DNA from: Gemmatimonadales bacterium
Lineage (GTDB): Bacteria; Gemmatimonadota; Gemmatimonadetes; Gemmatimonadales; GWC2-71-9
Assembly (NCBI GenBank): GCA_041615815.1
Contig: JBFJCP010000004.1
Location: 85,379-149,378 of the forward strand
Length of the DNA stretch: 64,000 nt
Direction of reading: 5' to 3'
A program made the position numbers and the translations under genes. Under the pieces are notes generated by a model, which had not been told where the DNA came from, did no database searches, and worked only from the letters and a program-made list of their open reading frames with translations. This document shows, one piece after another, positions 38,158 to 61,213 of this stretch. Positions within the stretch are counted from its first letter, which is position 1. Each line of letters begins with the position of its first letter.

Positions 38158-38289
38158 GGCTGGCGCCGAGATCACGCCCCCTTTAGGTTTCAGGCAGCGG
38201 GAAACCGGCTGCGAGACAGCGGTTCCCATTCCAGCGAACGTGACGGGGGCCTGGATTCAGCCAGGCCCTTTGTACATTGGAAACGCCAC

Positions 38290-38414
38290 GCCGCCGGCGA
38301 GGAAGGCGGCAACCCAACGCGGGGGTCAGGATACCGCGGAGAACGCAGATGAGTCGGTTAGGACGGTACATGCCGGACTCCGATCCCATCGGCACAACAC
38401 AAGGAGTTCGGTAC
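38290..38414 (+). ncRNA. Candidate structured csp 5' leader (copy 1)
   Basis: Stems and conserved blocks shared with the leader at 58260-58378. Confidence 0.55.
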
Positions 38415-38624
38415 ATGCGTACCAAAGGAACCGTGAAGTGGTTCAACGACAGCAAGGGATTCGGCTTCATCACGCCGGCAGACGGCCAGGCCGATTGCTT
38501 CGTCCATCACAGTGCTATCTCTGGCGAAGGCTTCAAGTCGCTCCGAGAGGGTGAGCAGGTGGAGTTCGACGTCGTGGCGGGCAAGAAGGGCCCGGCGGCG
38601 GAGCATGTCGTTGTAGTCCAGTAA
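38415..38624 (+). CDS. cspA: Cold-shock protein (CspA family; symbol is family-level)
   Basis: GTVKWFN, KGFGFI (RNP1), CFVHHSAI (RNP2), KGPAA; AAGGAG SD. Confidence 0.96.
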
Positions 38625-38649
38625 CGGACGGCCGCCCTATCGGCGGTTC

Positions 38650-38685
38650 AAGGCGGTCGGGGTCACCCGGCCGCCTTCGTTTTTT
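38650..38685 (+). terminator. Rho-independent terminator
   Basis: AAGGCGGTCGGG-gtca-CCCGGCCGCCTT followed by a T6 tract. Confidence 0.85.
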
Positions 38686-57685: not shown

Positions 57686-58153
57686 TTGGTGACCATCGCA
57701 CAGCAGGGCCACACGGTTCAAGTCCACTACACCGGCCGATTGCAGGACGGCACCGTGTTCGACTCGTCCGTCGGCAGAGATCCCCTCGAGTTCACGATAG
57801 GAGAGGAACAGGTGATTTTGGGCGTCGAGACCGCGGTGGTCGGTCTCCGGGTGGGCGAGCGTAAAGAGATCTCCGTGGCTCCAGAGGACGCGTACGGCCC
57901 GTACCGGGATGAGCGGGTCGTCGTCGTGTCCCGTGAGCAACTCCCGGACGAGATCGAGCCTCGGCCCGGCATGATGCTGCAAGGGCGGCTTCCGGGAGGA
58001 TCCGTCGATTTCGTCGTGACGTCGGTCTCCGACGAGGATGTGACGCTCGACGCCAACCATCCTCTGGCGGGTAAACAGCTCGATTTCGAGCTGGAACTGG
58101 TAGCGATCGTGGCTGGCGAAAGCGGGCTTTCCTCCTTCTCCGGTGACCGTTAG
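57686..58153 (+). CDS. FKBP-type peptidyl-prolyl isomerase (SlyD-like, no His-rich tail)
   Basis: VHYTGRLQDGTVFDSS, PEDAYG, LDANHPLAGK.L.F. Confidence 0.93.
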   Translation: MVTIAQQGHTVQVHYTGRLQDGTVFDSSVGRDPLEFTIGEEQVILGVETAVVGLRVGERKEISVAPEDAYGPYRDERVVVVSREQLPDEIEPRPGMMLQGRLPGGSVDFVVTSVSDEDVTLDANHPLAGKQLDFELELVAIVAGESGLSSFSGDR

Positions 58154-58213
58154 CTTGGAGATTGTGGAGGAACAGGTGTCTCTGTCCGGCACGTAGCACG
58201 CACCAGCGACGGG

Positions 58214-58251
58214 AAGGGACCTGCGGGTCGCGCAGGTCCCTTGTGTATTTT
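58214..58251 (+). terminator. Hairpin after the PPIase gene (terminator and/or csp promoter element)
   Basis: AAGGGACCTGCG-ggtcg-CGCAGGTCCCTT followed by GTGTATTTT. Confidence 0.55.
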
Positions 58252-58259
58252 TCGGACCG

Positions 58260-58378
58260 GCTGGAACTTCGGGGCTCCAGCACCCCAACGCGGGGGGAGT
58301 GACCGCGGACACGATGACGGTTCCCGGCCGCTGGCAGACCGAGCAGCCCGGGCTTCATCGACGGCAAAGGAGTGAGCA
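58260..58378 (+). ncRNA. Candidate structured csp 5' leader (copy 2)
   Basis: Same blocks and stem order as 38290-38414. Confidence 0.55.
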
Positions 58379-58591
58379 GTGCGCACCACCGGTACGGTGA
58401 AGTGGTTCAACGACACGAAGGGCTTCGGGTTCATCAAGCGCGAGGACGGGGAACAGGATTGCTTCGTCCACCATTCCGCCATCTCGGGGTCGGGTTTCAA
58501 GACCCTGAAGGAGGGAGAGCGCGTGGAGTTCGACGTGGTGCAGGGGCAAAAAGGGCCTGCTGCACAAAACGTGACTCGCGTCGAGGTGTAA
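58379..58591 (+). CDS. cspA: Cold-shock protein (CspA family; symbol is family-level)
   Basis: [29 protein letters not shown]; AAGGAG SD, GTG start. Confidence 0.96.
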
Positions 58592-58608
58592 CTCCTTCAC
58601 CGTCAAGT

Positions 58609-58650
58609 GGGTTGGCGGGGCGCCCGTCGGGGTAGCCCCGCCGACTCTTC
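58609..58650 (+). terminator. Putative terminator hairpin
   Basis: GGGTTGGCGGGGC...GCCCCGCCGACTC followed by TTC. Confidence 0.55.
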
Positions 58651-58768
58651 GGCGCTCGCCACACCGCGCCCACCGCCACGCTCCCCGGCGTTAAACCTTT
58701 CCACGCTTTGCCGTATCCAATCGACCGATCGAACGCATCGTCGTGACATTCCGTCAGGGAGGCCTCCG

Positions 58769-61213
58769 GTGTCGCTGGTGATCACGAACTTGCGAGTGGC
58801 TCTGCGCAGTCTCGGCAAACGCCCGCTCTTTGCAGCGGTGGCACTCACGACGATCGCCGTGGGCATCGCCGCGAACACGGCCATCTTCGGCGTGGTGCAT
58901 GCGGTGCTGCTCGAGCCGCTCCCGTACGAGGATCCGGGCCGGTTAGCGACCCTCGACGTCAAGGCGCCGACGGGATTCTACATCTCGACGTCGATTCCCA
59001 ACTTCGAAGACTGGCGCGACCGGAATCGGGTGTTCGAAACGTTCGGCGCCTCGGCTGGCTGGGGGATGGTGATGACGGGGAGGGGGCCGGCCGAGGTGTT
59101 GAACCTTCGGGCGGTGCTGGGCGAGTTCTTCGAGACGCTCGGCGTGGCGCCGGCGCTGGGGCGCATCGTGCCGGCCGCGGAAACCGGGCCGGGTGCGCCG
59201 GCCGTGGTGGTGCTAGGACACGGCTTCTGGCAGCGGCAGTTCGGTGCCCAGGGCGACGCGCTGGGGCAAACACTCGTGCTCGATAATCAGCCATACCAAA
59301 TCGTGGGGGTGATGCCGCGGGGGTTCGGATATCCGTCCGCGGACGTGGAGGCGTATTTCCCCATGGGCTCCCTGGCGTCCGACCTGCCGTGGACCGATCG
59401 AGACAGCAGTTTCGGAACGCGCATCGTAGCGCGGCTTTCAGTTGGGACCACCCTCGAGCAGGCCGCGGCGGACATGCAACGGGTGGGCCGGGAGGTTCAG
59501 GAACTCGAGGGGAGAGCGGTTCCCCAGCCGGAAGTTCGCGCGCTGACCGATCTCCTCGTAGGCGACGTGCGTCTGCAGCTCTGGGTCGTGATGGGAGCCG
59601 TGGCGTTCGTGCTCCTCATCGTTTGCGCCAACGTCGCCAATCTGCTGCTTGCTCGTGGCGAAGATCGTCGCCGTGAGATGGCCGTGCGGACCGCGCTCGG
59701 CGCCCATCGGAAAGCAATCGTGAGCCAGCTCCTCGTGGAGAGCATGGCGATCGCTACCATAGGCGGTCTGTTGGGCGTGGTGCTCGCCGCTCCAGCGATG
59801 CGGCTCGTCATCCCATTCCTTCCAGGCGGCATCCCCGCGGCCTTGGTGGACCGGATCTCTCTGAGCGGCGGCGTGCTGCTGTTCGGCGTTGCCCTCTCAC
59901 TCGTAACCGGTCTGGTGTTTGGACTCCTGCCGGCATTTCGCATCTCTCAACTCAATCCCATTGGTGAGTTGCGGGCCGCTGGTCACGCGGACGAGCGCGT
60001 CCGTCACCGGATGCGGTCGGCATTGGTGGTGGCTGAGGTCGCCGTGGCACTCGTGCTGCTGATTGGGGCCGGACTCATGGTACAGAGCCTTGGTAGGCTC
60101 CGTGCCGTGGAAAAGGGATTCGATGCCGAGAATGTGCTGACCGCCCGAATCGGGCTTCCCGATGAACGGTATTCGGATCGCGACCGGTGGCTGCGGTTCT
60201 TCGAGCAGCTGCTTCCCCGTGCGGAAGCGCTGCCGGGTGTTCGCGCCGCGGCCGTGAGCCTGCTCCTTCCCCTCAGCGACCGCTCGTGGGAGATGCGGAT
60301 CGTTCCGGAGGGAGTGCCGGTTCAGCGAGAGACCGCTGAGTCGGTGCTGTTCGGTATCGTGTCGCCCAGGTACTTCGAGGCGCTCGGAGTGCCTATCCTT
60401 CAGGGCCGCTCGTTTGCTCCGTCCGATCGCGATGAGACGGAGCTGGTGGCGATCATCGACGAGACCATGGCCGAACGATTCTGGCCAGGTGAGAACCCCA
60501 TCGGGAAACGCGTCGCGTTCGAGCTCGAAGAAGGGAGTAGCTGGGACGATCCGGTTCCGGTCTACCGGACGGTCGTCGGCGTGGCGAAGAACGTCCGTCA
60601 TTATGCATTGGCCAGTCCGTCGCGCATACAGGTCTATATCCCCTACACACAGCCGCAGCGCTTTGCGGGTGTGGGTCTCAACGTGCTCCTCAAGACAACC
60701 GTCCCAGCCACGTCTTTGGTCGAGCCATTGCGGCAAGAGGTGGTGGCGCTCGATCCGGACGTACCCATCTACCGAGTGACCACGATGGGGCAGTACGTGG
60801 ACCGGGCGCTGTCAGGGAGCCGCTCCATGAGCGGCATCCTGGTGGTGTTCGGCATCGTGGCACTCTTGCTGGCGGCGGTCGGGATCTTCGGGGTGATGTC
60901 GTACTCCGTAGTTCAACGGACCCGGGAGATCGGTATCCGCATGGCCATGGGGGCACGTGGAGAGGATGTAGTGCGGTGGATAGCAGGGCAGGGTGCCATG
61001 CTGGGACTCATCGGGATCGCATTTGGACTCCTCGCGGCGCTCGCCCTGATGCGGGTGCTCGCCGGCTTGTTGTTCGAAGTGGGGACGATCGAGCCCCTGA
61101 CGTACGCGGGCGTGGCGCTCGTGCTTCTCGCCGTCGCGACGTTGGCCGCCTATCTGCCGGCACGACGCGCGACGCGAGTGGATCCGGTGACGGTGCTCAA
61201 ATCAGATGGCTAG
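58769..61213 (+). CDS. Duplicated ABC permease (ADOP/MacB-like, two PCD+FtsX units)
   Basis: GIAANTAIF, LLIVCANVANLLLAR, E.AVR.ALGA, LVVAEVA, R.REIGIRMAMGA, PARRATRVDP. Confidence 0.92.
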   Translation: MSLVITNLRVALRSLGKRPLFAAVALTTIAVGIAANTAIFGVVHAVLLEPLPYEDPGRLATLDVKAPTGFYISTSIPNFEDWRDRNRVFETFGASAGWGMVMTGRGPAEVLNLRAVLGEFFETLGVAPALGRIVPAAETGPGAPAVVVLGHGFWQRQFGAQGDALGQTLVLDNQPYQIVGVMPRGFGYPSADVEAYFPMGSLASDLPWTDRDSSFGTRIVARLSVGTTLEQAAADMQRVGREVQELEGRAVPQPEVRALTDLLVGDVRLQLWVVMGAVAFVLLIVCANVANLLLARGEDRRREMAVRTALGAHRKAIVSQLLVESMAIATIGGLLGVVLAAPAMRLVIPFLPGGIPAALVDRISLSGGVLLFGVALSLVTGLVFGLLPAFRISQLNPIGELRAAGHADERVRHRMRSALVVAEVAVALVLLIGAGLMVQSLGRLRAVEKGFDAENVLTARIGLPDERYSDRDRWLRFFEQLLPRAEALPGVRAAAVSLLLPLSDRSWEMRIVPEGVPVQRETAESVLFGIVSPRYFEALGVPILQGRSFAPSDRDETELVAIIDETMAERFWPGENPIGKRVAFELEEGSSWDDPVPVYRTVVGVAKNVRHYALASPSRIQVYIPYTQPQRFAGVGLNVLLKTTVPATSLVEPLRQEVVALDPDVPIYRVTTMGQYVDRALSGSRSMSGILVVFGIVALLLAAVGIFGVMSYSVVQRTREIGIRMAMGARGEDVVRWIAGQGAMLGLIGIAFGLLAALALMRVLAGLLFEVGTIEPLTYAGVALVLLAVATLAAYLPARRATRVDPVTVLKSDG

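Follow-up and report, generated by a model that had tools for sequence, protein, structure and literature searches.

Two cold-shock protein (csp) genes of a Gemmatimonadales bacterium are preceded by upstream regions of the same build, which raises the question whether these regions encode a regulatory RNA and, if so, of what kind. The genes, csp1 and csp2, lie in a stretch of 64,000 nucleotides (nt), referred to here as the window (assembly GCA_041615815.1, contig JBFJCP010000004.1, positions 85,379-149,378 of the forward strand; all features described below lie on this strand and are numbered within the window). csp1 encodes a cold-shock protein of 69 amino acids (38415-38624; open-frame listing and csp collection), and csp2, which starts with GUG at 58379 and runs to 58591, a product of 70 amino acids. 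A preliminary description of the window had proposed a conserved structured leader in front of both genes, acting as a lineage-specific thermometer, a Csp-autoregulatory element or a riboswitch-like motif. Our analysis shows that the leader is conserved, structured, specific to csp genes and to a lineage, and that it constitutes a new sequence family. By analogy, its function is most likely a known kind of control, the logic of csp thermoswitches, to which two extra modules have been added.

The architecture proposed for the two leaders, a hairpin P1, a shared sequence block containing the helix P2, a closed hairpin P3 and a Shine-Dalgarno (SD) sequence, is present in every part and at the expected positions. 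P1 is the same hairpin made of different sequences, GCCGCC/GGCGGC in csp1 (38290-38295/38305-38310) and GCTGGA/TCCAGC in csp2 (58260-58265/58276-58281). The block reads CCCAACGCGGGGG-TCAGGAT-ACCGCGGA in csp1 (38313-38340) and CCCAACGCGGGGG-GAGTG-ACCGCGGA in csp2 (58284-58309). P3 is closed by GATG/CATC in csp1 (38348-38351/38387-38390) and by CGATGA/TCATCG in csp2 (58312-58317/58355-58360), and is followed by the SD sequence, AAGGAGT in csp1 (AAGGAGU in the RNA, 38401-38407, with the start codon AUG at 38415-38417) and AAGGAG in csp2 (58367-58372). The two upstream regions align beyond these limits, and 20-40 nt 5′ of P1 both contain a G+C-rich hairpin with a T-run. While P1, P2 and P3 had been described correctly, a pseudoknot stem, an anti-SD sequence, long-range pairing with the coding region and a complete 5′ half with a terminator-like hairpin had been overlooked; the element extends 5′ of 38290 and, on its 3′ side, into the coding region.

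In the complete genome of 4,188,222 bases (4.19 Mb), the block pattern occurs twice on the forward and never on the reverse strand, and a reversed-pattern control found nothing. The identical block is nevertheless not the conserved unit for which it had been taken, as it is absent even from two genomes of the same genus and as it is the structure that is conserved instead. An exact search of 41 genomes, including the unpublished genome G016, matched two (the own genome and G016) and left 39 without a match; exact searching was therefore dropped as a family finder and replaced by a protein-anchored collection of upstream regions and by covariance models. The csp upstream regions of 24 relatives have the same architecture in different sequence. 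A covariance model spanning P2, P3 and SD (R1), built from 21 aligned leaders of relatives and none of the own genome, finds exactly four matches in the own genome at E ≤ 1, all directly 5′ of csp genes: C15 (77.1 bits), C31 (70.9 bits), csp1 (61.0 bits) and csp2 (25.4 bits, E ~0.02 for the genome). The leader is thus not a feature of “both” cold-shock genes, as first thought, but of four of the five csp genes of this genome. The fifth gene (contig C6:105322-105585) has no leader of the family and an upstream promoter TTGACG...TATTAT.

Conservation in other genomes, on which the proposal of a new RNA depended, was found together with covariation in P2. R1 matches 76 of 151 genomes sampled evenly across the phylum (the unpublished G083 included), with positives in families f1 (49/71), f2 (18/31), f5 (1/1), f6 (5/6), f7 (1/16) and f8 (1/2) and in none of the 23 genomes of families f3, f4 and f9-f12. 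All positive genomes are labelled “same class” or closer, this class comprising most of the sampled Gemmatimonadota. A search with the exact P3 pattern in one genome each of about 185,000 species returned at least 120 stretches, and among the 80 matches listed 73 have titles beginning with Gemmatimonad; the other seven listed comprise three full-length R1 matches (44.5-63.2 bits), three partial ones (14.7-16.8 bits) and one without any. The three full-length matches among them (L139, L159 and L179) are on MAG contigs titled Acidobacteriota, Patescibacteria group and Krumholzibacteriia, and could stem from mis-binning, mislabelling or transfer.

The association with csp genes is nearly complete: 94 of the 96 R1 matches in our alignment (A3) precede an open frame with a cold-shock N-terminal motif. 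From P1 to the start codon the leader measures at least 125 nt, and about 220 nt from the inferred promoter. In agreement with the proposed novelty, Rfam 15 gave no gathering-level match in the window or in 16 related loci. In E-value mode the cspA family RF01766 reaches 23.4 bits at csp1 (38308-38680, mostly coding) and 9.9 bits at csp2 (58457-58531, inside the coding region), both below its gathering score of 78 bits, so that neither is a member of that family. A full-text search of a limited literature collection returned nothing on a csp leader in Gemmatimonadota.

The evidence on function comes mainly from P3. This hairpin carries a nearly invariant CCG-N-ACUCCGA, of which ACUCC is complementary to GGAGU of the SD; ACUCC-type motifs were present in 22 of the 34 csp upstream regions first examined. 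In csp1, P3 is a local hairpin in the predicted minimum-free-energy (MFE) fold (38348-38390; GAUG/CAUC, UCGG/CCGA and an inner stem), and its 3′ strand contains the anti-SD CCGGACUCC (38373-38381), which can form nine pairs, one of them G-U, with GGAGUUCGG (38403-38411). If typical members are folded together with 30 nt of coding sequence, the MFE fold pairs the 5′ strand of P3 (UCGG...GUACGG-CAU) with AUG, CGUAC-N and ACCGG, which are the start codon and, within the conserved M-R-T-T-G, codons 2-5, and places the ACUCC:SD pairing at the tip of this long helix. As the 5′ strand of P3 and ACUCC are complementary to SD, AUG and codons 2-5, the local P3 hairpin competes with the long helix.

For the long helix, pairs were counted in the 75 leaders whose gene begins M-R-(T/I/M/V/S): the four bases of UCGG can pair with coding positions +14 to +11 in 74, 74, 52 and 55 leaders, the five of GUACG with +8 to +4 in 68, 66, 65, 73 and 71, and CAU with +3 to +1 in 65, 57 and 31. 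These leader-to-coding pairs were not part of R1. Within this helix, leader column 80 lies opposite the third, synonymous base of codon 3, and the two positions covary (G:C 21, C:G 17, G:G 5, C:C 4; Fisher P = 3e-5). Watson-Crick pairs are found in 38 of the 75 leaders, compared to a mean of 24.0 after shuffling, a number that none of 10,000 shuffles reached and that other registers (7-26) do not approach. The competing hairpin has left its own trace. The 3′ strand of P3 (CCGAUUAC or CCGACGAACAUC) would be a loop in the long form and yet stays complementary to the 5′ flank, and in 53 of 83 cases the basal flanks of P3 pair better with their own than with foreign partners (-3.57 vs -2.47 kcal/mol; Wilcoxon P = 1.4e-4).

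Folding predictions, from which all energies, probabilities and barriers given here are model values, place the long form well below the alternatives. Across 56 leaders, the fold with SD:ACUCC pairing beats the best SD-free fold by a median of 8.6, 8.2 and 7.0 kcal/mol at 10, 25 and 37°C, respectively, and the median probability of an unpaired SD is 0.0; of 81 leaders, 69 have a paired SD in the MFE fold at 37°C. Between the local fold, which can form before the SD is transcribed, and the MFE fold lies a predicted barrier with a median of 11.5 kcal/mol at 10°C and 13.8 kcal/mol at 37°C. By prediction and covariation, the family therefore shows the two mutually exclusive forms that define a thermoswitch, one that masks the ribosome-binding site (RBS), another that masks the anti-RBS.

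On these grounds we regard the 3′ half of the leader as a two-state translational switch of the csp thermoswitch type, preceded by upstream modules, and assign this reading a probability of roughly 0.6. In the ON form, the local P3 hairpin would keep both the anti-SD ACUCC and the strand that complements the start region out of reach and leave SD and AUG free. In the OFF form, the 5′ strand of P3 would pair with AUG and codons 2-5 and ACUCC with the SD, so that one long helix hides the ribosome-binding site. Because P3 is transcribed first and OFF is usually the more stable form, we infer that the mRNA stays trapped in the first-made ON form in the cold. Refolding to OFF would be made possible by warmth or by the RNA chaperone activity of accumulated Csp. 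Ahead of this switch the transcript would carry the variable P1 hairpin, a small and probably H-type P2 pseudoknot and possibly, in the form of an intrinsic-terminator-like hairpin (H2), a layer of transcription attenuation.

Of these upstream parts, P2 shows the strongest covariation. CGCGG/CCGCG, which the preliminary description had read as P2, is the best-covarying helix of the leader and corresponds to the second of two stems, S1 and S2, in the P2 core. In csp1 (38312-38338), S1 is ACCC/GGGU (38312-38315/38323-38326) and S2 is CGCGG/CCGCG (38318-38322/38334-38338); in csp2 (58283-58307), S1 is CCCC/GGGG (58283-58286/58294-58297) and S2 again CGCGG/CCGCG (58289-58293/58303-58307). S2 is paired in 100% of the cells of A3 and shows two compensatory column pairs (C-G 61/U-A 34 and G-C 59/A-U 33). 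Its arm types CGCGG, CGUGA, CGCGA and CGUGG all come with matching 3′ arms, and each of the two rarer types is present in at least two families. In an unfitted MAFFT alignment the two columns are again compensatory (13/8 of 21).

S1 was absent from R1. It arises because a conserved GCCC just 5′ of S2 can pair with the GGGC that opens the S2 loop, and it is paired in 81% of cells. Its outer pair is G-C in 48 leaders, A-U in 8, G-U in 8, C-G in 3 and other in 27, with a significant association of G/A with C/U (Fisher P = 8e-5), csp1 carrying the A-U variant, and whole-stem variants exist (UGC/GCA in seven leaders, GCCG/CGGC, GCCA/UGGC and CCGG/CCGG). A fifth S1 pair was considered and rejected, as it occurs in 19 of 96 leaders and thus no more often than by chance. 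With a loop 1 of 1-3 nt and a loop 3 of 4-14 nt the topology is compatible with an H-type pseudoknot, and the sequences moderately support that P2 probably forms a small one; S1 and S2 could also be alternatives rather than simultaneous.

P1 of csp1 (38290-38310, sequence and fold) and csp2 (58260-58281, sequence) has counterparts of variable length and sequence in relatives, where the segment is at least 14 nt long in 64 of 71 cases and forms a hairpin (medians: -14.0 kcal/mol, z -1.75). The argument that changed sequence in the same fold points to selection is the weakest of the evidence that had been offered. Several leaders are short (L022, L024, L027, L037, L050 and L054): the P2 core is followed by an SD within about 10-25 nt, without P3 and without anti-SD, which indicates that P2 can act, or at the least be retained, where the switch is missing.

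Upstream of P1 lies the 5′ half of the leader. A putative promoter of csp1 (38161-38189), placed by position, consists of -35 TGGCGC (38161-38166), a 17-nt spacer and -10 TAGGTT (38184-38189), the latter 57 nt before the H2 stem; the putative -10 of csp2, TAGCTT (58151-58156), likewise placed by position, precedes the GGGACC of H2 by 59 nt and overlaps the stop codon of an upstream FKBP-type gene. At the predicted transcript start of csp1 lies a hairpin H1 (GCAGC...GCUGC, 38194-38212), with variable hairpins at the same place in relatives. Before H2 follows a conserved single-stranded motif, CCAGCGAAC in csp1 (38231-38239, between H1 and H2; ACCAG(C/U)GAAC or ACAAGUUCC in relatives) and CCAGCGA in csp2 (58203-58209; seen in sequence and relatives), which in the family at large reads CAGCGA, or ACCAGCGAAC / ACAAGUUCC. 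CAGCGA-like motifs occur twice in this 5′ module, just after the -10 at the likely 5′ end of the transcript and just before H2 (38196-38199 and 38231-38237; 58203-58209; also in relatives), and could, judging from sequence, be a protein-binding site.

H2 is a terminator-like hairpin. In csp1 (38247-38279, hairpin finder) it is GGGCCUGG-AUUCAG-CCAGGCCC (38247-38268) followed by UUUGUACAUUG, a weak T-run that the consensus terminator scan did not flag; in csp2 (58214-58254) it has 12 pairs (58214-58242) followed by GUGUAUUUUUCG and was flagged as terminator-like. A hairpin of this type with a T-run lies within 70 nt 5′ of P2 in 71 of 96 leaders, its 5′ arm is unusually conserved (GGGRCCUGG), and its helix covaries with a score that none of 500 shuffles reached. 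The promoter pattern TTGNNN-N16-19-TANNNT occurs at most 150 nt 5′ of H2 in 47 of these 71 leaders (shuffle expectation 2.9), with the -10 ending a median of 50 nt before H2, and in none of the 71 between H2 and P2 (shuffle expectation 1.15), which places H2 inside the 5′ untranslated region (5′UTR). Judged by these putative promoters, the leader, from its likely transcription start, extends about 100 nt further 5′ than the limit first given. With a hairpin, a U-run and a position within the transcript, H2 has the predicted features of an intrinsic terminator or leader attenuator. A candidate antiterminator, in which the conserved CCAG would pair with CUGG of H2, found no support: although 70.8% paired, this level was reached by 47 of 500 shuffles and its covariation score by 107 of 500.

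Other observations suggest that the halves of the leader can part. In some relatives H2 is missing and the promoter immediately precedes P1 or P2, so that the two halves appear to be separable modules. In some relatives (L020, L028 and L030; also noted for L029), csp follows rpsU (an S21-like open reading frame) in one operon, and rpsU is preceded by a leader resembling the 5′ module (AGCGA, a hairpin, ACCAGAGAC, a GGACCUGGGC...GCCCAUGGUCCU hairpin and a U-rich run) with neither P2 nor P3, which suggests that this module may serve more than csp. A covariance model of the 5′ part of the leader (R2, module A), weak with 6 pairs only, matched csp2 (32.3 bits, the best match in the genome), C15 (28.5 bits) and csp1 (20.8 bits), and no wider cold-shock regulon emerged from it. 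Its other matches (C21, C3, C1, C25, C37 and one after the csp gene of C6) look like ordinary 3′ terminators or lie within genes; the one just 3′ of the fifth csp gene (21.6 bits) is most likely an ordinary terminator.

A number of results weigh against the switch and its upstream modules as described. The most direct concern temperature: predicted equilibrium folds are nearly constant from 10 to 37°C. A simple melting thermometer was rejected for this reason, SD accessibility barely changing over the range; a kinetic or chaperone model with two states was preferred, and its temperature dependence rests on the kinetic argument and on analogy. For about 11 of the 56 leaders, the predictions do not sequester the SD. 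Positions of P3 and of SD/anti-SD mostly show no variation and are hence uninformative on pairing, A3 was fitted to the R1 structure and thus favours S2 of P2 and P3, and all statistics are uncorrected for sequence relatedness. For S1, a test of own against other partners in 34 leaders with deviant loops gave no difference (3.18 vs 3.03 pairs, P = 0.5). In the 5′ half, a consensus promoter scan of both window loci found none, and H2 could simply terminate upstream genes. As to expression, the four RNA runs matched to the locus (contigs, 80% likeness) cover 38394-38624 only, which is the conserved coding region; given their many differences, they come from other organisms.

The two leaders of the window add to these points, since csp1 and csp2 are, on predicted folds, the least switch-like members of the family. 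csp1 has all parts and is a weak or marginal case: its MFE fold is the local P3 at 10, 25 and 37°C, its ON and OFF forms differ by 0.0-0.5 kcal/mol, its SD is 42-46% unpaired at all temperatures, and a lysine codon at position 4 removes the UCGG:ACCGG pairing of the long helix. A perfect hairpin of 5 bp, GGUAC-AUGC-GUACC (38410-38414/38419-38423), which is formed by the spacer between SD and AUG and by codons 2-3, holds the csp1 start codon in a 4-nt loop; in many relatives a spacer GUACGG can pair in the same way with CGUAC of codons 2-3. csp2 does not show two forms: its P3 (58312-58360; folds and motif search) is a hairpin of its own sequence without an ACUCC anti-SD, and its SD is free in all predicted folds. 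What the two leaders have in common is H2, P1, P2 and a closed P3, csp2 retaining of the family's parts only H2, P1 and P2 next to its private P3.

The retention of these parts without an anti-SD means that H2, P1 and P2 must act beyond SD masking, and it is the starting point of other explanations. E. coli CspA-family proteins are transcription antiterminators and attenuate their own expression through a “cold box”. The leader might be an operator for Csp autoregulation without temperature sensing of its own, in which Csp binds single-stranded parts (the CAGCGA repeats, loop 3 of the pseudoknot and the P3 loop being candidate sites), alters folding, H2 termination or translation, and so makes the leader a reporter of Csp level. 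Such an operator would account for the specific association with csp (4 of 4 in the genome, 94 of 96 aligned), for the parts kept in both window copies and for equilibrium folds that hardly shift with temperature, and S. aureus CspA is reported (PMC8034633) to push the cspB/C leaders to their locked form. By reading alone, however, no U-rich Csp-type motif is evident in the conserved single-stranded parts. We consider an operator of this kind unlikely as the whole explanation; it is also compatible with a thermoswitch, and the two act together in known systems. The same retained parts, and the short leaders without anti-SD, would be explained by a cold sensor of three layers, of a kind so far undescribed, in which H2 and the P1-pseudoknot unit form a temperature- or Csp-responsive attenuation or folding device independent of the translational switch. 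Here the primary sensing would fall to the pseudoknot, which cold would stabilise or Csp would melt, and which would determine both the production of the downstream RNA and the form taken by P3. We see this elaboration as an improbable one, to be held about as loosely as the operator. Less probable still is an element of mRNA stability or processing, whose 5′ structures would guard against, or present sites to, RNases that depend on the 5′ end, with cold induction arising from differential decay instead of SD masking. The strong stabilisation of E. coli cspA mRNA in the cold, the stack of stable structures (H1, H2, P1, P2 and P3) and again the presence of P1 and P2 where csp2 lacks the anti-SD agree with it, but it leaves unexplained why the leader is complementary to SD, AUG and codons 2-5, why it covaries with a synonymous site and why 69 of 81 leaders have a paired SD in their predicted ground state.

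Two further explanations fare worse. The P2 pseudoknot, compact at about 27 nt and rich in highly conserved nucleotides, is comparable in size to the smallest pseudoknot aptamers known and could in principle bind a metabolite or ion. Of the functions first proposed, a thermometer or Csp-modulated switch fits best, while the riboswitch-like motif is unsupported, as the association is with csp alone. No transporter or metabolic pathway gene is linked to the leader, no Rfam riboswitch family or known aptamer matches even at E ≤ 10, and loop 3 varies in length (4-14 nt) and sequence; a true riboswitch is thus very unlikely. Least credible, to the point of being nearly negligible, is the absence of any functional RNA, with the likeness of the leaders a leftover of a recent duplication of csp and its upstream region and the hairpins due to chance. 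The distance of 20 kb between the copies, their identical 13-nt block, the ease with which G+C-rich DNA folds and the modest z of P1 (median -1.75) would fit such an origin. Against it, a model built from other genomes recovers the window copies, the element occurs in 76 of 151 genomes of several families, and P2 and H2 show compensatory changes, as does the pairing of the leader with a codon wobble base.

The two-state switch can be set beside known systems. Thermoswitches in csp 5′UTRs form a class that includes E. coli cspA/B/G/I, S. aureus cspB/C and L. monocytogenes cspA. In the S. aureus cspB/C 5′UTRs, a hairpin hides the anti-RBS in the O form, the RBS is paired in the L form, and CspA favours L; similar alternative folds without sequence similarity were predicted for csp leaders of other bacteria (PMC8034633, Catalan-Moreno et al, NAR 2021). 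The Gemmatimonadota leader resembles these switches in its position in a csp 5′UTR, in its two exclusive folds with an anti-RBS hairpin opposed to RBS:anti-RBS pairing, and in that several csp paralogues of a genome carry it and others do not. It differs in having no sequence relation to them, in a locked helix that would also cover AUG and codons 2-5, and in the pseudoknot, variable P1 and internal terminator-like hairpin 5′ of the switch, known here from sequence; a loop motif of the UUUGUUU type was not seen.

The likeness to E. coli extends to the coding region. In cspG/B/I, RBS and AUG are covered at 37°C by a long stem-loop reaching into the coding sequence; at 10°C, a shorter stem-loop in shifted register forms within the 5′UTR (PMC13271884). 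The cspA family and, as proposed here, the Gemmatimonadota leader share a long 5′UTR, a long warm stem-loop that enters the coding region and hides RBS and start, a shorter register-shifted cold form within the 5′UTR, and an ON form that can arise first in transcription. Sequence and helices differ, the RF01766 score is below threshold, and no equivalent of the “cold box” was identified in the leader. For the pseudoknot and the internal terminator-like hairpin we know of no described counterpart in the E. coli cspA family. H2 itself is like leader attenuators in being a G+C-rich hairpin with a T-run, about 50 nt 3′ of the -10 and 5′ of the regulated gene, and unlike them in that no competing antiterminator was found and the T-run of csp1 is weak.

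The surroundings of the genes deserve brief mention. The open-frame listing extends csp1 N-terminally to a TTG at 38277, which we rejected as an artefact because it is the SD-ATG spacing that is conserved instead. Both csp genes end in strong terminator-like hairpins (38650-38677, with 12 pairs plus CGUUUUUUCU, for csp1; 58607-58650 for csp2). An open reading frame of 868 amino acids 3′ of csp2 (58607-61213) resembles, by eye from its translation, a duplicated ABC permease of the FtsX/MacB type. Sequencing runs that contain DNA of the locus are listed as marine and soil metagenomes; RNA runs contain small shares only.

Genes of the csp family are a classic case of RNA-based temperature control, and the csp switches known to us are from a few Proteobacteria and Firmicutes and share no sequence. 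Gemmatimonadota are a widespread phylum of soil and sediment, for which, to our knowledge, almost no RNA regulation has been described. The present analysis adds to them a well-delimited family, for which an aligned set of 96 members and a covariance model that works are at hand; the family would merit a new Rfam entry and overturns no concept. A leader base that covaries with a synonymous codon position is an unusually clean signature of two states, and it supports the view that folds hiding either the anti-RBS or the RBS are a convergent solution of csp genes. The pseudoknot and the leader-internal terminator would be candidate additions to what csp switches can contain, and cultured Gemmatimonas could serve for their study.

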